Shown: positions 43,954-63,101, numbered from the stretch's first letter. The stretch: DNA of 64,000 bases from Candidatus Poribacteria bacterium (GCA_965207855.1 OZ242310.1:1811600-1875599); one strand, 5' to 3'. Notes: generated by a model not told the origin, from the sequence alone. Numbers and translations are program-made.

Positions 43954-43990
43954 CCTTCTTTGCTATATTGTTAGCGACAAAGCAGTTCCC

Positions 43991-44015
43991 TTGTAGCACA
44001 AACTGTTAGTTTGTG
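43991..44015 (+). repeat. REP-like GTAG-headed palindrome, core family copy (TTGTAGCACAAACTGTTAGTTTGTG)
   Basis: Perfect 8-bp arms CACAAACT/AGTTTGTG; 38 bp after stop of 43099-43953. Confidence 0.6.
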
Positions 44016-46898: not shown

Positions 46899-46901
46899 TT
46901 T

Positions 46902-46973
46902 GCACAGCCTAACAGGTTATGCTACAAAAGAAAAAGACATAGGGATGCACAGCCTAACAGGCTATGCTACAAC
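46902..46973 (-). repeat. Tandem pair of REP-like GTAG-headed palindromes (inverted orientation relative to the other copies)
   Basis: tgcacagcctaacaggttatgctacaa at 46902-46928 and tgcacagcctaacaggctatgctacaa at 46947-46973. Reverse complement is TTGTAGCATAACCTGTTAGGCTGTGCA. Confidence 0.6.
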
Positions 46974-48984: not shown

Positions 48985-49013
48985 TTGACAAAAATTACAC
49001 TCTCTTGTATACT
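48985..49013 (+). promoter_or_regulatory. Near-consensus sigma70 promoter TTGACA-N17-TATACT upstream of small paralog A
   Basis: tttgacaaaaattacactctcttgtatact; about 58 bp upstream of ATG 49072. Confidence 0.5.
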
Positions 49014-49071: not shown

Positions 49072-49512
49072 ATGAATATGACTGAACAGGAACTCAGAGC
49101 AGCAATGGAACGTGCTGACGCAATTGTGGAGAAAGTTAGGAATCTGGTTGCTTTGGAAGATAAGGTGATGGATGCGCGGGAGGCTGCGCGCCAACTTTCT
49201 ATTAATGGCAACGCTGCTGATGGTCAAAATGAATTGGTGGGACTGGAGACACAATTAAAAGAAAGCGTTGAAGAGTTGGGTGGGATTACAGATGAGCTCA
49301 AATTCGCAACGCCCTGTTTCAGAGCTTATGTCTTACCACAGATGAGTGAAATTGTAGGGACACTTAAAGCTTGCGACGCAGCAGAACGCAGTGAACTCGC
49401 GCAACTCATAACTACACTAACGGACGAGAACTCTCAACCGCCTGAGGAATTGGAAGAGGCGATCATAACCCGACTTAAAGCGAATCTTGAACGCACATTT
49501 GGTGTTGGATAG
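49072..49512 (+). CDS. Small helical hypothetical protein, paralog A (homolog of 51119-51598)
   Basis: 'ADAIVEKVRNLVALEDKVMD...ATPCFRAYVLPQMSEIVGTLKACDAAERSELAQLI' versus B 'ADIIVEKFRTLVNLESKILD...ATPSFRTYILPQITEIVRTFKSCETTEQVELSQLV'. Confidence 0.6.
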   Translation: MNMTEQELRAAMERADAIVEKVRNLVALEDKVMDAREAARQLSINGNAADGQNELVGLETQLKESVEELGGITDELKFATPCFRAYVLPQMSEIVGTLKACDAAERSELAQLITTLTDENSQPPEELEEAIITRLKANLERTFGVG

Positions 49513-49585
49513 TATGCCCATCCTTCCTTATGTGAGTTGATACCTGTCTGTGCCTCTTGCTATACATTTAACCTACGAACCCAGT

Positions 49586-49618
49586 GGCGAGGTTTCCTAA
49601 CCTCGCCTTTTTTCTTTT
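49586..49618. terminator. Rho-independent terminator between convergent genes
   Basis: ggcgaggtttcctaacctcgcc followed by ttttttctttt. Confidence 0.6.
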
Positions 49619-49641
49619 CATCCTTAACCGTCTTACCCCAT

Positions 49642-50814
49642 TTATTGCGTGTATGTCTTAAGTGTTCGGCGGTCTATACCTAACGACTTTGCGGCTTGAG
49701 ACAAAGATCCATGTTCTTTTATGCGTTGTTGGGCAACTTTTCCTAAGATTTGGTTCCGATCCATACCACTTATCCGAATCGTATCCTGATCTCCTCCCAA
49801 AAGCGTTGTTAAATGAAACGATGCCTCACGAATAACTGACTGCTGCGTTTTCTCTGGAAGCATTCGCCAGATAGCATTCGGTATGCCACCGAAAATCAGG
49901 ATAAATTCTATCACTGAAATCTGACGCAGAATTTGATGAATTTCCCTTGGAATCAAGGCGGGTGTACGGGTCTCCGAAGAACGGGGCGTTGCTGCCATCT
50001 GAGACGCGACTGCAATATCCGCAGGCAAATCACTAAATGTTAATTCGTCAGACCCACTTAGAATAATTGCCCTCTCAATAGCATTTCTGAGTTGGCGGAT
50101 ATTGCCGGGCCAGGCAGCATATTTGAGAAAATTGTGTACTTCAGGCGAGATCTTTGTAACGCTTTTTTTATGTTTGATATTAAATTCGGCTATAAATGCC
50201 TCCACTAAGAGTGGGATATCTTCACGCCGCTCTCGTAGAGGCGGTATGTGGAGCGGGAACTGTTTGAGACGGTAGTAAAGATCTTCTCTGAACTTTTTAT
50301 TTTTTATTGCTGTTTCAAGGCACGTGTTTGTCGCAGCAATAACGCGAACATCCGTTTTGACGGTCCTATTTCCACCGAGCCTTGTAAATTCTTGGGTTTC
50401 TAACACGCGAAGAAACATCGCCTGCACTTCAAGGCTCATTTCACCGACTTCATCAAGAAAGAGGGTGCCAGTATCTGTCTGTTCAAACACGCCTTTCCGC
50501 TGGTGCGTTGCGCCGGTAAATGTCCCCTTCTCGTGCCCAAAGAGTTCACTCTGCAAAAGCCCATTCTCTGGAAACGCACTACAGTTGATAACTCTCAGCA
50601 GTTTATCTTTTCGCAAACTGGCGTTATGGATTCGATGTGCTATGATTTCTTTGCCGACACCGGTATCGCCGGTAATGAGAACTGTTGTTGTACTCGGGGC
50701 GACCTGCTCTATCTGTTGATAAATCTCCTGCATCGGTGCTGAGGTCAGCACAATGGGTGTGGTCTTATTTTTAATGTTTTTCATAAGGTCATAACGAGGG
50801 TTTGACTTAAACAT
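49642..50814 (-). CDS. Sigma54-dependent transcriptional activator (bEBP) lacking an N-terminal sensory/receiver domain (PspF/HrpS-like)
   Basis: AAA+ sigma54-interaction domain begins ~25 aa from Met: 'VLITGDTGVGKEIIAHRIH', 'GHEKGTFTGA' (GAFTGA variant), 'GTLFLDEVGEMS'; C-terminal Fis-type HTH 'SLSQAAKSLGIDRRTLKTY'. Confidence 0.85.
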   Translation of the reverse strand: MFKSNPRYDLMKNIKNKTTPIVLTSAPMQEIYQQIEQVAPSTTTVLITGDTGVGKEIIAHRIHNASLRKDKLLRVINCSAFPENGLLQSELFGHEKGTFTGATHQRKGVFEQTDTGTLFLDEVGEMSLEVQAMFLRVLETQEFTRLGGNRTVKTDVRVIAATNTCLETAIKNKKFREDLYYRLKQFPLHIPPLRERREDIPLLVEAFIAEFNIKHKKSVTKISPEVHNFLKYAAWPGNIRQLRNAIERAIILSGSDELTFSDLPADIAVASQMAATPRSSETRTPALIPREIHQILRQISVIEFILIFGGIPNAIWRMLPEKTQQSVIREASFHLTTLLGGDQDTIRISGMDRNQILGKVAQQRIKEHGSLSQAAKSLGIDRRTLKTYTQ

Positions 50815-51008
50815 TTAGCCACTGAAAACCGTGTTAGAATGGCTGTGCGTTTAATCTAATTCGTTACAGCTGTGATGTCCCAATATGGTTAACATAGCAG
50901 CGAAGAAAAAATGAGTCAAGGAAAAGTTAAGGCTATTCTGTTTAACATACCCACTTTTTGAGGCATTTTTTTTACTATCATCCCACCCCCGCTTTTTGAA
51001 TCGGCATC

Positions 51009-51023
51009 TGGCATGTTTTTTGC
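51009..51023 (+). promoter_or_regulatory. Sigma54 (-24/-12) promoter TGGCAT-N5-TTGC upstream of paralog B
   Basis: ctggcatgttttttgctc; GG-N10-GC spacing exact. Confidence 0.55.
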
Positions 51024-51118
51024 TCAGTTATATACAGCCAAGAGTCTTTTATGGAAGAGATTTAAAGATCCATAGAATCGCCGATAGCGCGTGAATCGTG
51101 CCACAGTAAAGAGAACAA

Positions 51119-51598
51119 ATGTCTGAGAAAGGAACTGGACAAACAAAAGAACTCGCGGACATAATTGTGGAGAAGTTCAGAACCTTAGTTAATTTAGAAA
51201 GTAAGATTCTGGACACAACGGAAGAGATTGATCGAATCGCTGCCGACCGCGACAACACGGAACTGTCCAATTTACAACAAAATTCCATTGCTGAGCAGGA
51301 GAACATCCTGACCCAATTGGTGTCAGAATTAAAAGTGTGCCTCGAAGAGATGGACACAATTATGGAGGAACTCCAATTGGCCACGCCGTCCTTCAGGACT
51401 TACATCTTACCGCAGATAACCGAAATAGTCAGAACCTTCAAATCATGTGAGACAACAGAGCAGGTAGAACTCTCACAACTCGTGGCTGCACTAATAGATG
51501 CTAAGAGTTCCCAAGCTCTTGAACAGTTAGAAACAATAATTGTAACTCGACTCAGAGACAATCTGGAAAAAACTTTGATATTTAGACAGCAACTCTGA
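51119..51598 (+). CDS. Small helical hypothetical protein, paralog B
   Basis: 159 aa; collinear similarity with 49072-49512. Confidence 0.6.
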   Translation: MSEKGTGQTKELADIIVEKFRTLVNLESKILDTTEEIDRIAADRDNTELSNLQQNSIAEQENILTQLVSELKVCLEEMDTIMEELQLATPSFRTYILPQITEIVRTFKSCETTEQVELSQLVAALIDAKSSQALEQLETIIVTRLRDNLEKTLIFRQQL

Positions 51599-51758
51599 AC
51601 CTTCCGCTGAAGTTCACTAAACCCCATAAGCCAGAATTTTCCTGCACGATTTGTAATTCAAACTCCACTCCCTCAGTTTTCCTAACTCTTATTTATTCTT
51701 AATCTTACGTATTATGCATTAAATTGCGATTGATACAAAGGCAACTTGTATTGTTGTT

Positions 51759-51815
51759 CAATTTTTGTCCTATACAATTTTTGTCCTATACAATTTTTGT
51801 CCTATACAATTCTAT
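51759..51815. repeat. Tandem direct repeat, 16-bp unit CAATTTTTGTCCTATA x3.5
   Basis: Read directly; 55 bp left of IS3 boundary. Confidence 0.8.
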
Positions 51816-51908
51816 TCTTGAAAAATACGTATTTTTCAGGGCTACTACGGGAAATCTTTGATAAATGTTTGAAGTGCCACCGTTTATTTAGACCGAAATT
51901 TCGCAAAG

Positions 51909-52748
51909 TTAAGAGAAGGTTTGTCTTTGAAATTCTACAGGTGTCAGATACCCTAACGCCGAATGCGGGCGTTTCTCGTTATACACCTGTTGTAAAAAAT
52001 AACCGATACGCGTTTGAACATCCGAGAGATTCTCATAGTCATTGAGGTAGACTTCTTCTTCCTTGAGGGTTCGGATCAACCTTTCGGCGTATCCGTTCTC
52101 CCAAGGACATCCTCTGCGAGCGACTGAAATCTGAATACCATGTTCTTTGAGCGTCGAGATATAAGCTGTTGAAAGATACTGCGCGCCTTGATCGGAGTGA
52201 TGAATCTCTGGAACCCTGTCGTCTAAAGCTTGCTCTAAGGGTTCCAAGGTCAGAGATTGCGTCAAGTGTTGACTGAGTTTCCACCCTCTTATCATGCGGG
52301 TGAAGACATCCATGAGCAGAGCGACATAGATGAAGCGGTGCTTGAGGCGGACGTAGGTGATATCGCCCACCCACACCTGATCGCATCGACAAACATCAAG
52401 CGTCTTGAGGTGATTCCGCCAGGGCTGCGGACCGTCAGTAGAGTGGGTCGTTTGACACGCACGTTTGACGGCAACCGACAAGTTCGCTTCTTTCATCAAG
52501 CGGGCGACGCGTTTATACCCAACGGTGTGTCCTTCGGACACCAACACCTTCGTGATACGTCTATACCCGTAGGTCGGGTGTGCCGCCGCTAACCGCTGTA
52601 TTTCGGCGCGCAGAACTTCTTGAGAAGCGTCGATTCTCGGTTGATAATAGAAGGTGCTCTTGTTGAAACCTAGCACCTCGCAAATCTGCCGCATGGAATA
52701 CTCCTTGCGCAACGTCTCAACGAGACAGCGCTGTTCAGATGGACTCAA
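51909..52748 (-). CDS. IS3-family transposase OrfB (DDE integrase core)
   Basis: 'YGYRRITKVL', 'WVGDITYV', 'HSDQGAQYLS', 'YNEKRPHSALGYLTPVEF' rve-domain motifs. Confidence 0.9.
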   Translation of the reverse strand: MSPSEQRCLVETLRKEYSMRQICEVLGFNKSTFYYQPRIDASQEVLRAEIQRLAAAHPTYGYRRITKVLVSEGHTVGYKRVARLMKEANLSVAVKRACQTTHSTDGPQPWRNHLKTLDVCRCDQVWVGDITYVRLKHRFIYVALLMDVFTRMIRGWKLSQHLTQSLTLEPLEQALDDRVPEIHHSDQGAQYLSTAYISTLKEHGIQISVARRGCPWENGYAERLIRTLKEEEVYLNDYENLSDVQTRIGYFLQQVYNEKRPHSALGYLTPVEFQRQTFS

Positions 52749-53032
52749 TCCAAGAAAGTCAATGCTTTTTTTTGGATTTCCAGTGCCAGCGTCAACCGGC
52801 CAACGAGCTGCTCAAGTTGAGCGATCCGCGCCGCTGACTCGCTTGATGACTTATCGGTCTCTGACTCAAAGAAGGTTTCGGCATTTTCAAGAAGTTGGCG
52901 TTTCCATGTGGAGACTTGGTTTTCGCTGAGGTTATGTCGTCGACACAGTTCTGCTTGTGAACTTTCACCGCGGAGGGCCTCAAGCACAACTGCTGCTTTA
53001 AACTTAGCAGTGAATTTTCTGCGTTTCGCCAT
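52745..53032 (-). CDS. IS3-family transposase OrfA (HTH); -1 frameshift partner of OrfB
   Basis: 'MAKRRKFTAKFKAAVVLEAL...ELCRRHNLSENQVSTWKRQ'; on coding strand ccAAAAAAAGc slippery heptamer at ~52757-52765. Confidence 0.85.
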   Translation of the reverse strand: MAKRRKFTAKFKAAVVLEALRGESSQAELCRRHNLSENQVSTWKRQLLENAETFFESETDKSSSESAARIAQLEQLVGRLTLALEIQKKALTFLD

Positions 53033-53212
53033 CGGAAGGCTCCTTTCAAATATAGATTATCATTGTAGCACAATCTTATATTAGAGAGTGGTCTAAATTT
53101 CCGGTGGCAGTACAGTTCTTTATTCTCCGCTTCCTTCGCACTTTCTAAGACCATTTTGTTTTCAATGAGTGCCTTTCACCTCTCAATGTTCTTTATTTTT
53201 CAGATTTGCAAC

Positions 53213-53227
53213 TGGCACGCTTTTTGC
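53213..53227 (+). promoter_or_regulatory. Consensus sigma54 promoter TGGCACG-N4-TTGCT upstream of WD40 gene
   Basis: actggcacgctttttgctc; GG-N10-GC; 18/20 identical to the promoter at 51009. Confidence 0.5.
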
Positions 53228-53369
53228 TCTCATTATCTTTGATGGCTAAGTGAAGGAGATTTGTAAATTCACATCTGTCTATGCTGTATCTGAACGACCC
53301 CCACAACCTTTATGAGCGTGCGGGGTCCATTTTCAGTTGCAACGCATAGCGTTCTAAAGTAGACTGTAG

Positions 53370-53424
53370 TTCCATCCTTATGTTTCCTTTTGTTAGTTGA
53401 ACTTATAGGATAACATAAGGATGG
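53370..53424. other. Perfect 14-bp inverted repeat (TCCATCCTTATGTT ... AACATAAGGATGGA) with 27-bp spacer
   Basis: Read directly; between the sigma54 promoter and the WD40 gene start. Confidence 0.75.
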
Positions 53425-53492
53425 ACATATTCAACCTAAATTCTATTTAGCACAAGGCGTAAATTACCAGTGAAACCCAACAAAACTGATAC

Positions 53493-53518
53493 TTGTAGCA
53501 TAGACTGTTAGTCTGTGC
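53493..53518 (+). repeat. REP-like GTAG-headed palindrome, core family copy (TTGTAGCATAGACTGTTAGTCTGTGC)
   Basis: Arms CATAGACT/AGTCTGTG with compensatory change relative to copies at 15710 and 43991. Confidence 0.6.
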
Positions 53519-53593
53519 AGTCGTGTAAGGGAAGTGTTATTAGGTATCGACTCAAGCAGAAATGGAACCGCTATCGCTAATAAGGAAAATCTT

Positions 53594-55162
53594 ATGAAAA
53601 CCAAGTTGTTTTCTATGTTTCTCATGCTTTCTCTTTTGTTCCTGGCGATCTATCTACCGAAAGCGTTTGCCCAAAATTACACGTCATGGAGTTTGCCTGA
53701 TAGTGCCAAAGTACGTCTAGGCAATGCTAATGTCAATAGTATGCAGTTTTCTCCAAATGGTAAACTTCTGGCGGTTGCGAGTTCCACCAGTATTTGGGTA
53801 TACGATGTTAAAAACAGCGAAGTCCTCTTTCGACTCGTCGGACATGTGCAGACTGTTTCAAGCGTGGCGTTCAGTCCGAATAGTAAAACGTTAGCAAGCG
53901 CGAGTTGGGACGGAACCGTTCGCTTATGGGACACAAAGACGGGGGCACATCTACAGACGCTCACTGGACATACAGGTCGGGTCCATAGCGTCGCCTTCAG
54001 TCCAAATGGTCGAACATTAGCAAGTAGCGGTGCCGACAAAGTCGTCCGTTTGTGGGACCCGAGAAAAAGCATACATAAGCAGGACCTCGTTGGGCACACT
54101 GCTGAAGTCTATAGTGTCGCGTTCAGTCCGGATGGTCGAACACTGGCAAGTGGTGCATGGGATGCCACGATCCGCTTGTGGAATCCCGCAAAAGGCACAC
54201 TCAAACAGACGCTCAGACGGCGTACAGATAGGTTCAGTAGTGTCGCGTTCAGTCCGGATAGTCAGATATTGGTAAGTGTGAGCGGCAGAGAGGTCCGCTT
54301 GTGGAATCCTGTAAAAGGTAGACACGAGCGAGACCTCACAGGACGACATACAGATAGCGTCAATAGCGTCGCCTTTAGTCCTAATGGTCAGGCACTCGTA
54401 AGTGGGAGCAGGGATACTACGATTCGGGTGTGGGAGATCCCAAGTGGCAAGTACAAACGTTCACTCATGGGACATACAGGAAATATCAGTAGTGTCTCTT
54501 TCAGCCCGAATGGCAAAATACTGGCGAGTCAAGACGGCAGAGAAATCCGTCTGTGGGATCTCTCTGCGGGTATATTCGACCGAAAAATAAACGCATTTAG
54601 TAACAGAGGCAAACGTACAGGTTTTATCTGGGGAATCGGTGTCGGTACGGGAACGTCAAGTTATACACAAACGCTTGTTGAATATTGGGGAGATGCATAC
54701 GAAGGACCAACGGTAACAGAACGCGGGCGCGAATCGGCTTTTGTAACCAATTTCAGGATGGGACACGGGTTTTCAGAGCAGTTCCTACTCTACTACACAA
54801 GTCGAATCGCGTGGTTACCCTTACGCAATCTCTACAAGGACACTATGATTGCCAATGGTACAGCTGGCGTTGGTGTGACAATCTACCCGTTCTCCAGATT
54901 AAACCTTTATCTTACCGGTTCTGCAGGGTTAGCTACCTTAGCAACATGGTTTCCACCGTTTGAATTGGACCAGGCACGCGCAACAGGCGTGGCAGTTTCG
55001 GCAGGGATCGGTTATGAGGTCTTCCGCCATTGCTCTATTGACCTTACGGTAAATTTCGGGAACGCCTCCGCAAAGCAAATTGAGCAACTCAGACTGAATG
55101 AGGCTGAGTTAACAAATGAGGTCGTCACTGTTACATTGATGCTTAACGGACTCGCCTACTAA
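53594..55162 (+). CDS. Secreted WD40-repeat beta-propeller protein with C-terminal beta-barrel-like domain
   Basis: ATG 53594, signal peptide MFLMLSLLFLAIYLPKAFAQ; about 8 'VxSVAFSPNG..LAS.S.D.TVRLWD' repeats; C-terminal region with alternating hydrophobic beta pattern ending '...LMLNGLAY'. Confidence 0.8.
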   Translation: MKTKLFSMFLMLSLLFLAIYLPKAFAQNYTSWSLPDSAKVRLGNANVNSMQFSPNGKLLAVASSTSIWVYDVKNSEVLFRLVGHVQTVSSVAFSPNSKTLASASWDGTVRLWDTKTGAHLQTLTGHTGRVHSVAFSPNGRTLASSGADKVVRLWDPRKSIHKQDLVGHTAEVYSVAFSPDGRTLASGAWDATIRLWNPAKGTLKQTLRRRTDRFSSVAFSPDSQILVSVSGREVRLWNPVKGRHERDLTGRHTDSVNSVAFSPNGQALVSGSRDTTIRVWEIPSGKYKRSLMGHTGNISSVSFSPNGKILASQDGREIRLWDLSAGIFDRKINAFSNRGKRTGFIWGIGVGTGTSSYTQTLVEYWGDAYEGPTVTERGRESAFVTNFRMGHGFSEQFLLYYTSRIAWLPLRNLYKDTMIANGTAGVGVTIYPFSRLNLYLTGSAGLATLATWFPPFELDQARATGVAVSAGIGYEVFRHCSIDLTVNFGNASAKQIEQLRLNEAELTNEVVTVTLMLNGLAY

Positions 55163-55268: not shown

Positions 55269-56015
55269 GTGAGTAAAAAAATGCCACACTTTTTTAGGGC
55301 AGTGATATCGATAGTAGCTTTATTGGCGTTCATCTTCATCAATTTAAATCTGATCGGTTGTGGGGCAGATGAAGCAGAAACCGAGGCCGAAGTAGGGCAA
55401 CTCACAGATGAAGAACAGAAAAATCTGCTCCGATTTGTTGAATACGTGCTTTTTCCAACAACTCCTTACATAGATAAATCTTGGGTAGAGATAGTTCCAG
55501 AAGAAGAGGTGGCGGAAGCGGAACCGATTGACTTCGCAACAGAAACCGCGGCGATTCAACAGACCTTCACCGAATTTTATAATGCCTATAATGCCAATAG
55601 TACACGCACTGTTTTAGGGATTTTGTGGTCTCGTGGCATCATATTTCAGGGAAAGTTGAGTGCATCTACAACGAGGTCCTACATTGAGAATGCATTTATT
55701 GAAGCGAAGCGTCAGGGGGGGACAGCCGCCTGGGGTCCAACACCTACGTTGGCAGCATTTTATATCCGTCATGCGCATGTCCAAGCTCCTTATCCTGAAG
55801 CGAGCGCGTACGGGTTTAATGGTCCAGGCATCATATTTGATAGTGGACGTGCCAGTTATCCATCTACTATCACCTATCTGTATCTGGTAAAACAAGGGGG
55901 TAGATGGTTAATTAATCAGCTTTCTACCGGTAGTCCACCTCAGAAATACTTCAATGATCCAAAATATAAAGCCCCTGCAACCACTATAGACTGGACTCCG
56001 CTTCCCAAACGCTAA
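55269..56015 (+). CDS. Hypothetical lipoprotein (possibly NTF2/SnoaL-like fold)
   Basis: Lipobox NLIGCGAD; 248 aa; no firm family. Confidence 0.55.
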   Translation: MSKKMPHFFRAVISIVALLAFIFINLNLIGCGADEAETEAEVGQLTDEEQKNLLRFVEYVLFPTTPYIDKSWVEIVPEEEVAEAEPIDFATETAAIQQTFTEFYNAYNANSTRTVLGILWSRGIIFQGKLSASTTRSYIENAFIEAKRQGGTAAWGPTPTLAAFYIRHAHVQAPYPEASAYGFNGPGIIFDSGRASYPSTITYLYLVKQGGRWLINQLSTGSPPQKYFNDPKYKAPATTIDWTPLPKR

Positions 56016-56135
56016 CCCTCTGTTAGGTGAGATTTCTTATTCCGAAAGCCAAAACCTTCCCACTTGTTACTGGGAAAGAGACAGGTTTACAGTATAAAAG
56101 AAAGGCATCAGTTAAGAAGAACTCATGTTAGACAA

Positions 56136-58604
56136 ATGAAAAAACTTCATCCGCTTTTTACTCTTACGCTAATATGCCTCAGTTGCATAGCACAAGCACA
56201 CGCGCAAAACGCCCCAGATTATTTCGATCAGGTCACACTGTTTTCGGATGGCAGAATTACGCGCTTTACACAGATGCCAATTCAAGTGCATATCTCTCCA
56301 ACTCTCAAAGCACTCCCTTATTTAGCGGAGATCCGTTACGCTATGAACGCTTGGGAAACCGTATCCAGTGGGAAAATCCGCTTTCAAGAGACCCAAGTGT
56401 TAGAGCAGGCGAATATCCGTGTCACCGCGACCACCAGCAGTCGCTTAAGGTTTTTAGACACACACTTCGGTAGTGCGGAACTCACGCGCCTTGGGCAAAG
56501 AACATATACCGTCTCCAGCAATGATCTCCAGATACAAAGCCACAAGTCGGACAACCCTTCAAACACAAAGGTTGATTTTACAGTAGAGGTTATTCTTGTA
56601 TTAGCAGGGGATGGCACGACTGGCGAACTCACAAAAGAAGAGATGCGCACGGTCTGCCTGCATGAGTTTGGACACGCTATCGGGTTATGGGGACACAGCC
56701 CGGATCCGCTTGATGTTTGTCACGCCGCTGCAACCACTCAATACCCGACAGCCCGCGATAGCAACACATTGCGAAAACTCTACGACACCCCACTTCATGC
56801 ACCACAGCACGATATTGCTATTAACCTACTAAAGAAAGAAATCCAACCCAACACGAGACGAGCACGTCCGCACTATCTACTCGGTGCCGTCTACTTTGAC
56901 AAAGGCGACATGACACTCGCGATTGCCAGTTTTCAGAACTGCATCGGGATTGATCCCAATTTTGAACCAGCGCTCGAAAAACTGATTCAGGCTTATGAAA
57001 GAACAGGACAGTCACACCAAGCAATCCGTCTCGTCGAGCAGCGCGTGCAGAACCAGCGAGGACACCGTGGCTTCCGTGAAAGTGCTGATAGTTATAATGT
57101 TCTCGGCACGCTCTATTACCGCAAGGGTGATATAAACAAGGCGATGCAAGCATTTGAAGACGCACTTGAACGTTCACCACATCACAAAGTCGCAAAACGA
57201 AACCTACACCAACTTTTTCGCGAAAAAGCATTTAATGCTTTGAAGATAAACGCTTTTGACGAAGCAACCACATACTTCCAGAGAGCCATCTATCTCGACC
57301 CAATGAATCCTGAGACCTATCGACACATGGCAGATGGTTATGCCCACGTCTCTCAGTTTGCCAAAGCGATTGAATACTACCAAAGGACCTTGGAAATCGC
57401 ACCTGACGATCAGGCAGCGCAGCTGAACCTCGCGCAATCCTATAATAACCATGGTGTAACACTCAGGAATAACGGCAAATGGGATGAAGCGATTCGCGCC
57501 TACCGAAACGCTTTGAAATTGCAACCCACTTATCAACTCGCCCAAACAAACCTCAGCGATGTCCTTTGGCAGAAAGCGAACGCCTATCGGCAATCCGGAC
57601 GCTCCGCGGACGCAATCGCTACGTATCTTGAATTGCAGAGACTACATCCGGACGATATAACTGTCCTGAGTCTACTGGGTGAGTTGTATCTTAAAACGCG
57701 AGACTATCCGACGGCGGTTTCTGCATTTCATAAGGTATATACCGCACTGCCTACCGACAAACAGGCACGGCATAACCTTATCGCTGCATATCAGCAATAC
57801 GCACAGGCTTTGAGAAACCAAAGGAATTATAGTGCTGCAATGACGCAACTTCAGAAGGCAGTAGACCTCTTTCCAACCGATGTTAATCTCCGGATCAGTC
57901 TATCACAGGCATACCAACATGTCGGGAGATATGAACAGGCACGTGATGAACTGGAACAAGTTTTGGTCCAGGCTCCCGACAATACAAACGCGAAGACAGA
58001 GTTCGTGAATCTTCAAGTTCGCCGTGGAAACACCCTCATGAATCAAAAGAGATACACTGAAGCCATTGCTGTCTTTGAAGGGATTCCTGCCTCTGAAAAA
58101 ACTGTTGATATGCACAATGTGATTGGCTATCTCTATCTCGTTCAGGACGAACACCTCAAAGCGTTGGCGACTTTTGAAACGGTTCTGCTTAAGCACCCAA
58201 GGAATACCATCGCTTATCAAAACTTACTCTCCCTTGAATCGCAACTTGAAGTGGCTATTGACAAGGCGAAAACCGATGCACAGGCAACCGCAAGTACGGA
58301 TGAAGTTCCGCCTCTCGTTGAGAGTACTCCTGATCCCGATGCAGAAAAGTTGTCCCGTGTGCAGTGTACCCTTGTCCAGTGTTTAATGAACCGCAAACAG
58401 TCTAAAAACGCGATTGAGAAATACCGACAGGCGTTAGCACTGAAACCCTACACATCCGAATTGCGAGCTGTACTTATCCACACCGGCAAGCATCTCGCCA
58501 ACCGACTTCGGAAGCAGAATGACCCCGATAATTATGAAACAATTGTCCGTTGGGCAACAGCGTTAGATGCCAATTTTGAAACATCCCTTGGTTCCGATGA
58601 ATAG
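56136..58604 (+). CDS. Secreted zinc metalloprotease (HEFGHAIGLWGH, matrixin/M10-like) fused to multiple TPR repeats
   Basis: Signal peptide LICLSCIAQAHAQ; 'CLHEFGHAIGLWGHSPD'; long array of 34-aa TPR-like units (AxxYxxAL...). Confidence 0.75.
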   Translation: MKKLHPLFTLTLICLSCIAQAHAQNAPDYFDQVTLFSDGRITRFTQMPIQVHISPTLKALPYLAEIRYAMNAWETVSSGKIRFQETQVLEQANIRVTATTSSRLRFLDTHFGSAELTRLGQRTYTVSSNDLQIQSHKSDNPSNTKVDFTVEVILVLAGDGTTGELTKEEMRTVCLHEFGHAIGLWGHSPDPLDVCHAAATTQYPTARDSNTLRKLYDTPLHAPQHDIAINLLKKEIQPNTRRARPHYLLGAVYFDKGDMTLAIASFQNCIGIDPNFEPALEKLIQAYERTGQSHQAIRLVEQRVQNQRGHRGFRESADSYNVLGTLYYRKGDINKAMQAFEDALERSPHHKVAKRNLHQLFREKAFNALKINAFDEATTYFQRAIYLDPMNPETYRHMADGYAHVSQFAKAIEYYQRTLEIAPDDQAAQLNLAQSYNNHGVTLRNNGKWDEAIRAYRNALKLQPTYQLAQTNLSDVLWQKANAYRQSGRSADAIATYLELQRLHPDDITVLSLLGELYLKTRDYPTAVSAFHKVYTALPTDKQARHNLIAAYQQYAQALRNQRNYSAAMTQLQKAVDLFPTDVNLRISLSQAYQHVGRYEQARDELEQVLVQAPDNTNAKTEFVNLQVRRGNTLMNQKRYTEAIAVFEGIPASEKTVDMHNVIGYLYLVQDEHLKALATFETVLLKHPRNTIAYQNLLSLESQLEVAIDKAKTDAQATASTDEVPPLVESTPDPDAEKLSRVQCTLVQCLMNRKQSKNAIEKYRQALALKPYTSELRAVLIHTGKHLANRLRKQNDPDNYETIVRWATALDANFETSLGSDE

Positions 58605-58629
58605 AAGGATAGGTATGTATGAAATCTTC

Positions 58630-58652
58630 TTGTAGGAGCGAGCTGCACTCGC
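58630..58652 (+). repeat. REP-like GTAG-headed palindrome with variant stem (TTGTAG GAGCGAG CTGCA CTCGC)
   Basis: Read directly; 26 bp after metalloprotease-TPR gene stop. Confidence 0.45.
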
Positions 58653-58717
58653 GATGTGTACAATGAACAATTCAGTCGATTGGGTTGAATAGACTATAAT
58701 CCAAAAGGAGAAAACCT

Positions 58718-59887
58718 GTGAATAATTTTAAACTCACTCAGATAGGTTGCGTCATTGCGTTGATTCTCTACATCGGTTTAGGGATAGGCTGCGAACAGTA
58801 TAAAGAACTCACCAATGACCCACCTAAAGTAACCAATTTCACGGTGCCAGCAGAGGTTGCGTATGGCGAGACCGTTGTGTTCAGAATTAGAGTCTTTGAT
58901 CCCGAAGAAGACCCTCTGACGTATTCATGGGAGGTCTCACACGGGAGTTTCGTTGGTGCAGCAGGGGTTGCTGAGGTTCAATGGAAAGCACCTGAATTGC
59001 CAGATGAAGAGGTAGCACCACCGATAGCTGTGACTGTTAATATCGCCGTGAGCGATGGTGGCGATGAGGAGATCTACCGAACAGCTGAAGTTATCGTCTT
59101 CTCCAAACCTTACAAAGTCGCACGATCCCTGAGTGGCACGTATACGTTTGTTTCCAAGGAGGTTCACGGAGAACCTGTTGCGGAGGCGGGAAACATGCGC
59201 CTGACCCCGACAACCTTTACGAGAGAATTTCAACAGGCACAAGATGGCGAAGCCCAGGGATTGTCTCGATTTCTTTCGGGTTCCTATAAACTTATTGAAC
59301 CTTTTGACGAAAGAAAGGGAACGATCCATTGGTATGCGGACGCAGATCCGGTGCCTTCTGAAAGCACCTATACGTGGGATGGAACACTCTTGGTTCTCTT
59401 TTGGTCAAATGTTTCGACTCGCTATGTTTATAAGATGATAAGTCGGGGTTCCGAGGAGTTGCCGATTCAGGATGCCGGTACAAATCCAGAGCCGATTAAC
59501 ACCAACCGTGAACCGGGAAATGTCGTTGGAGGCGATGTTAATCCAGAACCGGTTAATGCCGATGGAAAACCTCTTGAGGTAACCGATGCAACGTTCCAAG
59601 CCATGGTCTTGGATGCTCCGCTACCCATTGTCGTCGAGTTTAGAGCCGACTGGTGCCCCTTCTGCCGGCAAATGAAACCCATCGTTGAGACGGTTGCCTC
59701 AGAAAACCGTAATAAGTTTGTTATTGCTCTACTGGATATTGATAACAACAAGCGGATACCTGAAGAATATAAAGTTGAGGGTATTCCAACATATATTATC
59801 TTCCAAGACGGTTCGGTCGCCGCCAGATTCGCAGGTGCTATGCCTAAAGCTGCCTTTCTGGAGAAAATCTTGAACGCACTACAGTAG
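58718..59887 (+). CDS. Lipoprotein with N-terminal Ig-like domain and C-terminal thioredoxin domain (WCPFC)
   Basis: GTG start after AAAGGAGA; lipobox LGIGCEQ; 'RADWCPFCRQMKPIVE...VEGIPTYIIFQDG'. Confidence 0.75.
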   Translation: MNNFKLTQIGCVIALILYIGLGIGCEQYKELTNDPPKVTNFTVPAEVAYGETVVFRIRVFDPEEDPLTYSWEVSHGSFVGAAGVAEVQWKAPELPDEEVAPPIAVTVNIAVSDGGDEEIYRTAEVIVFSKPYKVARSLSGTYTFVSKEVHGEPVAEAGNMRLTPTTFTREFQQAQDGEAQGLSRFLSGSYKLIEPFDERKGTIHWYADADPVPSESTYTWDGTLLVLFWSNVSTRYVYKMISRGSEELPIQDAGTNPEPINTNREPGNVVGGDVNPEPVNADGKPLEVTDATFQAMVLDAPLPIVVEFRADWCPFCRQMKPIVETVASENRNKFVIALLDIDNNKRIPEEYKVEGIPTYIIFQDGSVAARFAGAMPKAAFLEKILNALQ

Positions 59888-59948
59888 ATTTCCATGCCGG
59901 ATTCTGTTCTGAGTGAAGTTTAAGAAATTTAATAAGGAGGGGTTCCCA

Positions 59949-62900
59949 ATGAAAACTACACTTGTACTAATCCTGACTGTCATGTTTATGGTGTCTAATT
60001 TGCTACTAAGCAGTTTCGCAGTAGACCATCCGCAGTGGAATTTACCCGAAGGTGCCATCGCTCGCATCGGAAAAGGCTACATGAATGATATAAAATTTTC
60101 TCCGGATGGCTCCCGGATTGCAGCGGCAACTTCTAACGGGATTTGGATACACGATCCAAATACAGGTGAGGAGCTGGACCTGATTCCGGCAAAAGATGCT
60201 TATACAATCTCGTATTCCCCCGATGGTCGGCTGCTTGCAAGTGCAGGCTGGATAACGGAGAGAGTACAGTTGTGGGATACTATGAGCGGTCAACTTAAAG
60301 CCACATTTATAGGCGGCGGCTCTGGTGTCGCGTTCAGCCCCGATGGGCGTACCCTTGCCAGTGGTGACGGTTGGCATAGCAATAGGGTTCGTTTATGGGA
60401 TATTGACACCGGGCAACTCAAAACCACGCTCCATGGCGGCGGTTACGCGGTCGCCTTCAGTCCCGATGGGAAAAGACTTGCAAGTACAGGGGAATGGAAC
60501 AGTAGGATATTTATATGGGATATTGATAGTGAAGAACTCAAGGCGACCTCAGTTGGGCATAACTGTCTGGCAGGAAGCGTATCGTTCAGTCCCGATGGGC
60601 GAACTCTTGCTACCGCGGGGGGTGACCATAAGGTGCGATTGTGGGACGCTGCAACAGCTGAAAGCATCGGGATACTGGACGGTTATGCAGATGTTGTTGC
60701 GTACTCTCCGGATAGTAAAATGATTGCGAGTAATACAATGGTCTGGGATGCGCACACAAGAGCCAAAAAAATTAGACTCACTAATTATGCTATGCAAGCT
60801 GTATCGTTCAGCCCAGATAGTCAATTGCTCGCAGGCGGAAATGTGATTTGGGACATCAATACTGGACAGTCTAAAGCCACGCTGTCTGGTTATGTATTTT
60901 TCGGTGGAAGTGTTGTGTTTAGCCCAGATAGTCAAACGTTCGCAAACGATACTGATGGCGTGCGCTTGTTCGACGCTATAACCGGGCAGCATAAATCTAC
61001 CTTTACGAGGGGGGGCGGCATAGCGTTCAGCCCGGATGGGCGAACACTCGCAAGCGGCGGCAGATTTGAAAAGAGCGGTATGATTGAGTTATGGGATGTT
61101 GCGACTGGAGAAAACATAGCCAACCTCAAAGGACATACAGACCCTGTGAGGAGCGTAGCGTTTAGTCCCGATGGGCGAACACTCGCAAGTGGCAGTATGG
61201 ATAAAACGGTGCGGTTGTGGGATGTGAACACCGGACACCTCAAAGCAGTGCTTATTGGACATGAGGATGATGTGATACGTGTCGTATTCAGTCCGGATGG
61301 TCGGATGCTCGCAAGCAATGGTAGCTACGATAGGACGGTGCGGTTGTGGGATGTGAACACCGGACACCTCAAAGCGACCTTTGAAGATCATACTAATTCA
61401 GCCACAGATATAGTCTTCAGTCCAGACGGTCAGCTCCTCGCTAGTGCTGGGGGGTGGCACAATCCGCTGCGATTACGATATGTGAATACAGGTGAATTCA
61501 AAAACATACCAGGGTTAGATGTTGGCATTCATAGTGTTGCCTTCAGTCCCGATGGCACCTTACTCGCCTGTGGAGATTCCGAATTTAAAATTCAGTTAGT
61601 AGATGTCGCAACAGGAGCCGTCTTGGAAACCATCAATGGGCATGGGAGTCCAGCTGTGAGTATAGCGTTTAGTCCGAATGGTCAAAGACTCGCAAGCGTC
61701 GGGTTCAGTGGTGCCTTATTCCTGTGGGATCTGACGGACCTCCTCCAATATACGCTGCTTGATAATACAGACGACCCACAGAGCCAAGGTAATACACTTA
61801 TAAAACAATATGAACGAGAGTTAGTCCGGTTAATTTATTTTTGTCCTAATGACCGATTACCCCAACAAAGTATTGACACACAGTTGGACACTTTGATACG
61901 GGATACACAGTACTTCTACACGCAACGGATGCACGAACACGGAGGAAAGACTTTTGCTTTTGAAACAGACCCTGTGGGGAATGCGCGCGTGCATCATATT
62001 ACTGGCAAGTTTGACGATGCCTATTATCATGAGGACACCTACCACAAGGTGATAGAAGAAGTTACGGAGCAGTTTGATACCTCAACAAATGCCTACCTTA
62101 TTGCCGTGGATATAAGTACTGAGTTCATAAATGACGCAGGGACGTGTGGCATCGGAGGTGGAGGGTGGCGTGCGCACGACAACGAAGCGTGGCTACGAAC
62201 TTTTGGAGGTACAGCGGTGATACCAGCTTCCGGTGTCTGTTTTGGTGTGGAGATCGCCGCCCATGAACTCGGACACGTATTCGGTTTACAACATGACTTT
62301 CGGGATGATACGTATCTGATGGCTTACGGCACCCAAGAACGCCTGTCTCGTTGTGCCGCTGAATGGTTAGCGGTCCACCGTTTCTTCAATAATGATCCAA
62401 CCTTTTTTGATGATGCAGCAACGCTTGAGATGCGATCTTCCCGCGTCTCAGACGCGAATACACGTCAGCTCCAGTTTGAATTGACGGATCCAGACGGCTT
62501 GCATCAAGTACAGCTCCTGATTCCAGCGACTGCCACCGATCCCGCTCCCGGTGAGAAACTACAGAGTTGCCGGTCCCTGAACGGTACAAGTCAGAGCGTC
62601 GGGTTTACCGTCACTGGGTTAGCCGCTGCCCCCGGCACTCAAGTAACCCTTCAAATTATTGATACGCGTGGCAACATTACAAAGGAGCAGTTTCCAATTA
62701 TATTGGAGGAAGGTGTCGTCAACGCTTCACCGGTTGCTGTCGACACGATACCTGATCCTACGCTAACACCCGGTGCTACTACGATGCTAAATGCTTCAAT
62801 AGTGCCAACACAGACGCACCTGTTACCAAACTACCCGAATCCGTTCAATCCAGAGACATGGATACCGTATCACTTGTCGGAGTCTACGAATGTCCTTGTA

Positions 62901-63101
62901 TCTATTTATGCTGTGGATGGGAAGTTAGTGCGTAGTTTGGAAATTGGGGATATATCCGCGGGTATATATCAAAGCAAATCTCGTGCGATATATTGGGATG
63001 GCAGAAACGAAGTCGGTGACCCCGTCGCAAGCGGTGTGTATTTCTACACCCTCACCGCAGGCGATTTCACCGCTACCCGAAAAATGCTGATAAAAAAGTA
63101 G
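59949..63101 (+). CDS. Secreted WD40-repeat / metzincin zinc protease (HELGHVFGLQHD) protein with Por/T9SS-type C-terminal sorting domain
   Basis: ATG 59949 after AAGGAGG; >10 'VAFSPDGRTLASG..D..VRLWD' WD40 units; 'AAHELGHVFGLQHDF'; C-terminal 'LLPNYPNPFNPETWIPYHL...YWDGRNE...SGVYFYTL...RKMLIKK'. Confidence 0.85.
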   Translation: MKTTLVLILTVMFMVSNLLLSSFAVDHPQWNLPEGAIARIGKGYMNDIKFSPDGSRIAAATSNGIWIHDPNTGEELDLIPAKDAYTISYSPDGRLLASAGWITERVQLWDTMSGQLKATFIGGGSGVAFSPDGRTLASGDGWHSNRVRLWDIDTGQLKTTLHGGGYAVAFSPDGKRLASTGEWNSRIFIWDIDSEELKATSVGHNCLAGSVSFSPDGRTLATAGGDHKVRLWDAATAESIGILDGYADVVAYSPDSKMIASNTMVWDAHTRAKKIRLTNYAMQAVSFSPDSQLLAGGNVIWDINTGQSKATLSGYVFFGGSVVFSPDSQTFANDTDGVRLFDAITGQHKSTFTRGGGIAFSPDGRTLASGGRFEKSGMIELWDVATGENIANLKGHTDPVRSVAFSPDGRTLASGSMDKTVRLWDVNTGHLKAVLIGHEDDVIRVVFSPDGRMLASNGSYDRTVRLWDVNTGHLKATFEDHTNSATDIVFSPDGQLLASAGGWHNPLRLRYVNTGEFKNIPGLDVGIHSVAFSPDGTLLACGDSEFKIQLVDVATGAVLETINGHGSPAVSIAFSPNGQRLASVGFSGALFLWDLTDLLQYTLLDNTDDPQSQGNTLIKQYERELVRLIYFCPNDRLPQQSIDTQLDTLIRDTQYFYTQRMHEHGGKTFAFETDPVGNARVHHITGKFDDAYYHEDTYHKVIEEVTEQFDTSTNAYLIAVDISTEFINDAGTCGIGGGGWRAHDNEAWLRTFGGTAVIPASGVCFGVEIAAHELGHVFGLQHDFRDDTYLMAYGTQERLSRCAAEWLAVHRFFNNDPTFFDDAATLEMRSSRVSDANTRQLQFELTDPDGLHQVQLLIPATATDPAPGEKLQSCRSLNGTSQSVGFTVTGLAAAPGTQVTLQIIDTRGNITKEQFPIILEEGVVNASPVAVDTIPDPTLTPGATTMLNASIVPTQTHLLPNYPNPFNPETWIPYHLSESTNVLVSIYAVDGKLVRSLEIGDISAGIYQSKSRAIYWDGRNEVGDPVASGVYFYTLTAGDFTATRKMLIKK

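Follow-up and report, generated by a model that had tools for sequence, protein, structure and literature searches.

Type III secretion in Pseudomonas syringae is controlled by HrpR and HrpS, a co-dependent pair of sensor-less sigma-54 activators (bEBPs), and HrpG relieves the inhibition of HrpS by sequestering its small inhibitor, HrpV. In the phage-shock response of Enterobacteria, PspF also has no N-terminal regulatory domain; the gene for its small helical trans regulator, pspA, lies behind a sigma-54 promoter of that activator, as in a feedback loop, and the activator gene is divergent from this promoter. Control of bEBPs without a cis-regulatory domain is exerted in trans, by PspA and by HrpV (PMC7057263).

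We analysed a locus of Candidatus Poribacteria in a 64-kb stretch of DNA (the window) that has one sensor-less bEBP, two paralogous genes that we call parA and parB, and two predicted sigma-54 promoters, and that by analogy may be a further form of the control known from PspF/PspA and HrpS/HrpV. It resembles PspF–PspA in its activator, in a small helical protein that is here only a candidate regulator, in the position of parB (in the place of pspA) behind a sigma-54 promoter, and in the divergence of the bEBP gene from that promoter. It differs in having a second paralogue, parA, whose constitutive expression is predicted from its promoter, in an extra conserved helical module before the helix–turn–helix (HTH) of the bEBP, and in an output of exported repeat proteins rather than membrane-stress effectors. 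With the Hrp system it shares the absence of a sensor, an output aimed at a eukaryotic host and, potentially, inhibition in trans by one small protein with relief by a second. However, it has a single bEBP, parA and parB are paralogous to each other, unlike HrpV and HrpG, the surroundings contain no type III secretion genes and no sequence relation to the Hrp proteins was detected.

A sensor-less sigma-54 activator

The ORFs, promoters and insertion sequence of the first-pass annotation were all recovered in the window at the places given there. The bEBP and the genes and signals around it are as follows.

48985-49013, + strand: sigma-70-type parA promoter, TTGACA-17-TATACT, 11/12 consensus match
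49072-49512, + strand: parA, 146-aa ORF; acidic, all-helical; candidate trans regulator of the bEBP
49586-49607, + strand: intrinsic-terminator-like hairpin and T-run; 9-bp stem with 6 GC pairs, TTTTTTCTTT tail
49642-50814, - strand: bEBP, 390-aa ORF; AAA+, lid, conserved helical module of about 50 residues, Fis-type HTH
50891-50919, - strand: sigma-70-like bEBP promoter, TTGACT-17-TATGTT with TG, by consensus match
51119-51598, + strand: parB, 159-aa ORF; paralogue of parA, acidic, all-helical; downstream of promoter P1

Pfam assigns to the bEBP a Sigma54_activat domain (residues 22-188, E 1.1e-65) and an AAA_lid_14 domain (194-276, E 1.8e-26), and its C terminus has a weak Fis-type HTH (368-385), a class feature of sigma-54 activators. 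Walker A (GDTGVGKE), Walker B (LFLDE) and arginine-finger (FREDLYYRL) regions are present in the translation, and matches in the PDB are to ZraR, NtrC1 and NifA (E 1e-64 to 1e-70). The extra C-terminal helical module matched no known sensor fold. The sigma-54 contact loop reads GHEKGTFTGA (residues 93-102), in which GTFTGA replaces GAFTGA and the essential F and T are retained; the variant is also found in four sister strains, with GAFTGA in other species and GSFTGA in L018. This loop is non-canonical, which counts against the explanation that we favour below.

Pfam finds no domain N-terminal of the AAA+ domain, with receiver, GAF, PAS and V4R modules all absent, and N termini are equally short among orthologues, which bears out the earlier description of the protein as sensor-less. 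In the 22 aligned orthologues (20 from species-level loci plus the remote loci L024 and L025), 6-12 residues precede the AAA+ domain, except in L010, where a contig end cuts the N terminus. The short N termini throughout complete orthologues, together with a TAA stop directly upstream of the bEBP ATG, rule out an N-terminally truncated pseudogene. Orthologues begin at the equivalent of Met11, and this residue (50784) is, from the alignment, likely to be the true start. The AAA+ domain had been placed about 25 residues from Met1; it begins at residue 22 of the ORF, but only about 12 residues from the likely start. The promoter block of the bEBP is retained in L002, L011 and L018 (matches to query positions 61-113 of the P1 region). 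Equivalence to PspF was considered and rejected, as the protein scores 244.5 bits against a cut-off of 443.55 for TIGR02974 and 199 against 529 for PRK11608 (NCBIfam).

An orphan family beside the activator

ParA and parB are 43% identical (E 5e-36), in keeping with the roughly 40% reported at first for two all-helical proteins of no known family, and neither has a match in Pfam, NCBIfam or, at the sequence level, the PDB. No similarity to PspA or to known anti-activators emerged from the same comparisons; PspA/IM30 was rejected as an identity because there is neither a PF04012 match nor a predicted long, ESCRT-III-like coiled-coil hairpin. The AF2 model of parA is helical throughout (pLDDT 72.8, moderate confidence), and a fold search with it returned generic helical matches and nothing specific. 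With a pI of 4.4 and helices throughout, parA looks more like a protein that binds other proteins than one that binds DNA.

A search for the parA family among 1.84 billion representatives gave 27 clusters at 50% identity; the family has 264 homologues, and all of those with a named source are from Poribacteria. A neighbour-joining tree places the B-type proteins in a clade that is sister to the core A-type one. An ATPCFRAY motif has Cys in 83 A-type members, including all core parA orthologues, and Ser in 24 B-type members, including parB; the remote homologues P0129 and P0146 do not have this Cys. The last residues of parB differ from those of sister strains through a 1-nt change in an A-run. 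The near-consensus sigma-70 promoter of parA, noted earlier, was confirmed, and in the closer loci (L001-L004, L008 and L011) parA likewise follows a TTGACA...TATAAT promoter.

All 23 species loci are from Poribacteria. The bEBP gene adjoins parA in 21 of 21 parA-anchored species-level loci, whatever the gene orientation, and a parA-family protein again lies beside a sensor-less bEBP in L024 and L025, so that the co-occurrence sought for the small proteins extends across the sampled species. Even the most remote homologues, P0146 (E 1.7e-4) and P0129, each adjoin a sensor-less bEBP of 376-390 aa. Gene order and orientation of the pair are altered in L024 and L012, and the flanking genes vary from clade to clade. 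By sequence comparison, the parA/parB proteins are an orphan family restricted to Poribacteria and always linked to a sensor-less bEBP.

The core of the module is parA with the bEBP gene. Of the three genes first proposed to form it, parB is not a constant part, as only about one-third of species have it. Because parA and the bEBP gene are convergent at most loci, with the terminator-like hairpin 3' of parA between them in the window, they are not co-transcribed, which speaks against the circuit proposed below. Two loci depart from the pattern. L011 has a parA pseudogene and retains parB and the promoters; L019 has an intact parA but lacks three things at once, namely the AAA+ half of its bEBP, the repeat array described below and promoter P2, so parA may have another role, or the loss may be recent.

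Sigma-54 promoters and a probable enhancer

The promoters and repeats assigned to the activator are the following.

51009-51024, + strand: P1, sigma-54 promoter TGGCAT-N5-TTGCT, TGGCATGTTTTTTGCT, 95 bp upstream of parB
51759-51811, + strand: probable enhancer (UAS), 3.3 tandem copies of the 16-bp unit CAATTTTTGTCCTATA; TRF, 100% matches, score 106
53213-53228, + strand: P2, cargo sigma-54 promoter TGGCAC-N5-TTGCT, TGGCACGCTTTTTGCT, an extended-consensus match

P1 and P2 each carry the GG (-24) and GC (-12) elements, exactly spaced, that are predicted for sigma-54 promoters, and lie within the extended consensus TGGCAC-N5-TTGCW. They are the sole matches to TGGCAYN5TTGCW on both strands of the 64 kb (expected, 0.20), and one of 100 shuffles of the window reached two matches. 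The exact match ahead of parB, reported in the first pass, holds up in other genomes: an equivalent of P1 precedes parB in six of the seven parB-bearing species loci (L002, L003, L004, L008, L018 and L020) and in four sister strains. P2 had been described as nearly identical to P1. The second match is indeed present at 53213, but the likeness is that of a shared sigma-54 consensus and does not necessarily reflect duplication. All 18 species loci whose sequence reaches far enough past the array have a P2 orthologue, and so do L024 and L025. We found no literature on sigma-54 in Poribacteria. As no ORF with an RpoN box was found in the window or in any fetched locus, sigma-54 itself is presumed for this organism, a point against the mechanism proposed below.

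A conserved repeat array, absent from the first-pass annotation, lies between the bEBP gene and the cargo promoter. Its core, CAATTTTTG, usually in three copies, precedes the cargo promoter in all informative loci; arrays of 2-5 core copies, 15-17 bp apart and 130-310 bp upstream of the promoter, were found in 20 of 23 species loci. In these 20 and in both remote loci the array is always between the bEBP gene and the sigma-54 promoter, with a variant core (CACTTTTTG) in L024 and a wider spacing of the core in L025. Copy number varies among strains (three in the window, four in L026). The core ACAATTTTTGT is a palindrome (ACA-N5-TGT), which would suit an HTH that binds as a dimer, and three copies, the usual number, would match a hexamer.

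NtrC/NifA enhancers likewise place several activator sites 100-300 bp ahead of a GG-N10-GC promoter, and the ACA-N5-TGT core recalls the NifA site, TGT-N10-ACA. The poribacterial sites differ in being regular direct repeats with a 15-17-bp period and a strain-variable copy number. We consider the array a probable enhancer on these sequence features. As no array lies upstream of P1, activation there would have to come either from the array, which is about 750 bp further downstream, or from bEBP in solution.

A possible circuit and its alternatives

We propose that bEBP dimers bind the array through the C-terminal HTH and assemble a hexamer there (three sites, each with a dimer), which would remodel sigma-54 RNA polymerase at P2 by DNA looping, and probably at P1 too. 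As the bEBP lacks an input domain, control in trans would fall to parA, which is expressed from a strong sigma-70 promoter and most likely acts as an anti-activator by binding the AAA+ domain, as PspA does with PspF and HrpV with HrpS. ParB would be an old paralogue, itself under a sigma-54 promoter, that adds a feedback loop: negative if parB also inhibits, positive if it titrates parA. From gene neighbourhood alone, both proteins are candidates for regulation of the bEBP in trans, whether by inhibition or by activation.

That the sensor-less bEBP, the parA-family protein, the repeat array, the sigma-54 promoter and the exported-protein cargo form a regulatory module common to Candidatus Poribacteria, with control in trans, has in our judgement an about even chance of being correct. 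More tentatively, parA and parB could represent an undescribed class of trans bEBP regulators, a constitutive anti-activator and its sigma-54-induced paralogue in feedback or a partner switch; on a host cue they would act as a master switch for exported eukaryote-like repeat proteins (WD40, TPR, LDL-receptor class B, LamG and PA14), with the three-repeat array as a hexamer-templating enhancer. If so, they would be a third, unrelated family of trans regulators of sensor-less bEBPs, beside PspA and HrpV, and would add an unusually regular direct-repeat enhancer to sigma-54 biology. The module offers a defined activator, an enhancer motif, promoters and two candidate modulators; its parts are short enough to be rebuilt in Escherichia coli, and complete genomes and metatranscriptomes can be screened for them.

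Linkage to the bEBP is silent on the sign of regulation, and it would be the same if parA were instead required by the bEBP, as a positive co-factor or detached sensor, for assembling the hexamer, binding DNA or receiving a signal. Input might then come through the ATPCFRAY Cys, for instance, with parB modulating or competing; the Cys of A-type and the Ser of B-type members agree with this, as does L011, in which one paralogue may stand in for the other. Known trans regulators that bind sensor-less bEBPs (PspA and HrpV) nevertheless inhibit (PMC7057263), the most remote homologues do without the Cys, and a promoter that looks strong and constitutive is what one would expect for an inhibitor made in stoichiometric amounts; we think a co-factor role unlikely but not negligible. 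Quite unlikely, in our view, is that parA and parB are no regulators of the bEBP but conserved neighbours with another cytoplasmic role, perhaps linked to the cargo, the bEBP being constitutive or controlled by its level. The convergent orientation, the generic helical-bundle fold, the lack of a recognisable interaction motif and the survival of parA beside the truncated bEBP of L019 would all accord with this. Against it, adjacency outlasts changes of orientation, order and flanks across the phylum, down to homologues at the limit of detection, the pair is constant though the cargo varies, and parB has its own sigma-54 promoter within the module.

A partner switch would keep parA as the anti-activator but have P1-induced parB heterodimerise with it and free the bEBP, giving positive feedback or bistability by the logic of HrpG and HrpV. 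Sigma-54 control of parB but not of parA, the HrpS–HrpV–HrpG precedent and the frequency of heterodimers among helical-bundle paralogues speak for such a switch; we nevertheless find it improbable, as about two-thirds of species keep the remaining module without parB, so that a switch is not essential, and the persistence of parB in L011 without a functional parA argues against its acting solely through parA. It is less probable still that the 16-bp repeats are not bEBP sites but those of another factor, or overlapping sigma-70 promoters, with the bEBP acting from solution or elsewhere. The repeats do resemble weak sigma-70 promoters (each pair, TTGTCC-18-TACAAT, matches at 9/12), P1 has no array, and the HTH recognition helix shows no clear co-variation with the L024 variant. 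However, the array keeps a classical enhancer distance in the 20 species loci and both remote loci, was lost with the AAA+ half and P2 in L019, and has the palindrome and copy number that suit a dimeric HTH and a hexamer.

Variable cargo and a recent insertion

Poribacteria are dominant, uncultivated sponge symbionts that export many eukaryote-like repeat proteins, a presumed means of contact with the host. These proteins have been catalogued (Kamke et al. 2014, PMC3909097); we found nothing in the literature on their control. The cargo side of the window contains the following.

51870-53114, - strand: IS3-family insertion sequence, 1245 bp, from Pfam HTH_Tnp_1 and rve, its ends and target duplication
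51909-52748, - strand: IS3 orfB (rve, Pfam)
52745-53032, - strand: IS3 orfA (HTH_Tnp_1, Pfam)
53229-53593, + strand: long cargo 5' leader, with a large hairpin (53371-53425) and a REP-like palindrome (53493-53519)
53594-55162, + strand: first cargo gene, 522-aa WD40 beta-propeller (Pfam WD40, 7 repeats)
55269-63101, + strand: further same-strand genes, possibly of the cargo unit: 248-aa familyless, 846-aa TPR, 389-aa thioredoxin-domain and 1062-aa WD40 proteins

The WD40 protein has a signal-peptide-like N terminus (MKTKLFSMFLMLSLLFLAIYLPKAFAQ) and a non-WD40 C-terminal region of about 190 aa, and is also called as 522 aa in sister strains; its start is the ATG at 53594, which corrects the earlier reading. 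The genes at 55269-63101 may belong to the P2 unit, and TPR and WD40 homologues follow P2 in L004 and L018. Across loci the cargo consists of variable exported proteins (WD40, TPR, LDL-receptor-B, LamG, PA14 and proteases) and changes while the parA–bEBP pair stays constant. The proposal that the module drives secreted WD40 proteins is too narrow as to WD40.

The IS3 element shows the features of its family: overlapping HTH (orfA) and DDE (rve; orfB) ORFs, an A8G slippery run (52765-52773), imperfect terminal inverted repeats (TGAAGTGCCACCG / TGTACTGCCACCG) with TG...CA ends, and a 3-bp target duplication (GTT, 51867-51869 and 53115-53117). Only its landing site is notable. It had been placed between parB and P2, which is correct; more exactly, it separates the repeat array from P2. 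With the element and one GTT taken out, the window sequence at this point is identical to the unoccupied site in the sister strains L026 and L027. The enhancer, which would have lain about 174 bp ahead of P2 before the recent insertion, is now 1422 bp away from it. Activation of the WD40/TPR cargo is probably weakened or uncoupled by this, with P1–parB left intact. Between them, this strain and its sisters without the element amount to a natural experiment on enhancer–promoter distance. The cargo leader, which has no match in Rfam, contains a second difference between strains, an insertion of about 154 nt that is absent from L026.

A sensor-less σ54 activator between two paralogous genes

The gene for a σ54 activator (the enhancer-binding protein bEBP) lies between parA and parB, which encode paralogous, small, acidic, all-helical proteins. 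The ORF calls reproduce the layout proposed in the first-pass annotation.

Features of the module (window coordinates)
49072–49512, + strand: parA, ORF of 146 aa
49642–50814, − strand: bEBP gene, ORF of 390 aa
51119–51598, + strand: parB, ORF of 159 aa
51759–51811: repeat array (TRF: period 16, 3.3 copies, 100% matches)
51870–53114: IS3 element, inverted repeats beginning TG...CA at 51870 and 53114, GTT duplicated on both sides

The bEBP comprises a σ54-interaction domain (residues 22–188), an AAA+ lid (194–276) and a weak Fis-type HTH (368–385); Pfam shows nothing N-terminal, in line with the earlier claim that a sensory module is missing. Its ATG is directly preceded by a TAA stop, and on the basis of this stop codon and comparison with orthologues we rejected a truncated pseudogene. 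The small proteins, first put at about 40% identity, are 43% identical (E 5e-36). The annotated promoters also stand: the near-consensus σ70 promoter at 48985–49013 scores 11/12, and TGGCAYN5TTGCW is matched just twice in the window (0.20 expected), at the σ54 promoters 5′ of parB (P1; TGGCATGTTTTTTGCT, 51009) and of the cargo genes, the first of which encodes a WD40 protein (P2; TGGCACGCTTTTTGCT, 53213). A search for other regulon members across the window revealed no additional array and no additional exact promoter.

A protein family confined to Poribacteria loci

As first proposed, parA and parB have no known family in Pfam (E<=0.01 and E<=5), NCBIfam or a profile comparison with PDB sequences; parA is already annotated, as a hypothetical protein. 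These searches gave nothing but coiled-coil noise below threshold (DUF2203, Cob_adeno_trans). A parA+parB profile retrieved 264 proteins among 5.8 billion searched, and all matches given a name by their source are ‘Candidatus Poribacteria’. An exhaustive HMMER profile pass over 1.84 billion cluster representatives returned 27 clusters in total and no clear relatives beyond the family, and scanning GTDB at one genome per species yielded 23 loci, every one in Poribacteria. The bEBP C-terminal region as a query is uninformative on occurrence outside Poribacteria, because its nine matches are short fragments only.

A bEBP homologue adjoins the parA-type gene in all 21 loci anchored on such a gene; the two genes converge in 20 loci and run in the same direction in L012, and the genes around the pair vary from clade to clade. 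Even the family's most distant members, P0129 and P0146 (E 1.7e-4 for the latter), each adjoin a σ54 activator of 376–390 aa. The co-occurrence analysis proposed in the first-pass annotation gives a positive result. In the remote locus L024, parA is followed by bEBP on one strand.

A repeat array upstream of the cargo promoter

In other species, a σ54 promoter is directed away from the bEBP gene, and parB-bearing loci have two, one 5′ and one 3′ of parB. Each of the 18 species loci long enough to show it has the cargo promoter. The array, a tandem 15–17-bp unit with core CAATTTTTG in usually three copies (range 2–5), lies 131–310 bp upstream of this promoter, as computed from locus positions, and was found in 20 of the 23 species loci; the others are L005 and L010, in which the contig stops at bEBP, and L019, in which the region is deleted. 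The core ACAATTTTTGT is a palindrome (ACA-N5-TGT). Locus L024 has a variant core (4x GCACTTTTTGCACCTGA), and L025, also remote, has the same core as the other loci at a spacing of 42 bp. Copy number differs among near-identical strains (four in sister strain L026; three in the window and L027). This probable direct-repeat enhancer is unusually regular. No second array occurs 5′ of P1 in any locus; the window and L003 have one degenerate CACTTTTTG-like site there and nothing more.

The −35 region of the parA σ70 promoter (48985–48998; TTGACAAAAATTA) carries the enhancer core in reverse orientation, and CAAAAATTG occurs exactly in the parA promoter region of L004 and L011, at 7919 (−). Perhaps bEBP binds this site too, modulating parA.

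The first-pass annotation placed an IS3 element between parB and the second σ54 promoter, and the IS3 ORFs (HTH_Tnp_1 and rve; Pfam) are located there. What it missed is that the element parts the enhancer from its promoter, lengthening the array–P2 distance from ~174 bp to 1422 bp. The insertion is recent, because excision in silico of 51870–53114 and one GTT restores the sequence of the sister strains L026 and L027, both free of the element.

Proposed mechanism and alternatives

We propose that bEBP would bind the array and activate P2, and probably also P1; three dimer sites in the array could template a hexamer. A σ54 circuit is the reading with the best support, and we are confident that bEBP, array and promoters form one. 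Alternatively, the repeats may serve some other factor: the HTH recognition helix does not evidently co-vary with the L024 repeat variant; on the other side, array, promoter and the AAA+ half of bEBP are jointly absent from L019.

Because bEBP lacks any input domain, its control would come in trans, from the parA family, and parA and parB are probably coupled to it functionally. The favoured role is that of an anti-activator, by analogy with PspA and HrpV, documented regulators of bEBPs without a cis-regulatory domain (PMC7057263), and because the parA promoter is strong and of constitutive type and parB lies inside the regulon, like pspA. Against this reading, parA is intact in L019, where bEBP is truncated; L011 keeps parB although its parA is a pseudogene; and rpoN was not found in the window or the retrieved related loci. 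The small proteins might instead form a partner switch, parA might be a co-activator or detached sensor, or both might be conserved neighbours unrelated to bEBP control, a reading against which the linkage in 21 of 21 loci counts. We give the full statement, a σ54 circuit under trans control by the parA family, most likely as an anti-activator, an even chance; direct inhibition of bEBP, argued by analogy, is tentative and falls somewhat short of that.

PspF–PspA, in which pspA likewise lies inside the regulon, and HrpRS–HrpV/HrpG work in a similar mode, but the Poribacteria module belongs to neither: its bEBP falls outside the PspF equivalog, and parA and parB belong neither to PspA/IM30 nor to another recognised family. 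A familiar control logic is combined here with a new partner family. A literature search found no published link between Poribacteria and σ54 or enhancer-binding proteins. The module is also linked to symbiosis-associated surface proteins.

Decay of the module and a variant parB C terminus

The module has decayed in some species. In L011 (8001–8470; 10095–11276), parA contains a stop and has lost ~20 aa, parB persists and a transposase lies between bEBP and parB. In L019 (8540–10865), the N-terminal half of bEBP, the array and P2 are deleted beside a gene of 572 aa, members of whose family also flank bEBP in L016, L017 and L022. The L014 bEBP (8483–9625) has a single in-frame stop. The parB C terminus (51565–51598) reads EKTLIFRQQL* in the window and EKNFDI* in four sister strains because an A-run differs in length by 1 nt; this is a genuine frameshift or else an assembly error at the homopolymer.

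Cargo genes and leaders

Genes 3′ of the cargo promoter vary by species and encode WD40 propellers, a TPR protein, LamG, PA14, LDL-receptor class B (YWTD) propellers, FGE-sulfatase domains, a papain-like protease and several family-less proteins, with a caspase-like protease farther downstream in L001. Most of the proteins begin with a signal peptide or with an N terminus of lipoprotein type. The cargo consists of the ‘eukaryote-like repeat proteins’ to which Kamke et al. 2014 (PMC3909097) drew attention in Poribacteria. In eight loci (L002, L003, L006, L009, L011, L012, L013 and L018), the first cargo protein has a near-identical lipoprotein-type N terminus (MRKYAYIILLALIASTVYFTSCERIP) and a Pro/Glu/Met-rich linker, combined with differing passenger domains (LamG, PA14, YWTD or an unassigned ~250-aa domain), a pattern suggesting that domains are shuffled behind a constant cassette of promoter, leader and signal. 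After seven WD40 repeats, the C-terminal ~190 aa of the window's WD40 protein (54650–55162) are Gly/Thr/Tyr-rich, end in ...LNGLAY, match none of the Pfam families listed and could be an outer-membrane anchor.

Cargo leaders are 130–430 nt long and conserved inside species groups, with no Rfam match to riboswitches or other known RNAs in the window region and 11 related loci. The leaders of L002, L006, L008, L009 (10252–10400), L011, L012, L013, L018 and L020 have in common a conserved block, CCGTTGAAATCTAAGCATTGTTCCTGACTCTTATTTGAAGGAGG, and after it a hairpin (CGCGGTTG...CAACCGCG) with two compensatory pairs and no Rfam match; this candidate cis-regulatory RNA is absent from the window leader. 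A stretch of ~154 nt of the P2 leader (~53372–53535), missing in L026 and present in L027, starts with a hairpin at 53371–53425, includes a REP-like element and may be a small inserted element. A 24–27-nt palindrome (TTGTAGCATAGACTGTTAGTCTGTGC) occurs in the window at 53493–53519, 46946–46972, 46901–46927 and 43990–44015, and in L002 (7789), L004 (3927), L006 (2291/2328), L010 (7835) and L016 (7871/2250); it looks like an intergenic, REP-type interspersed repeat of the window and other Poribacteria.
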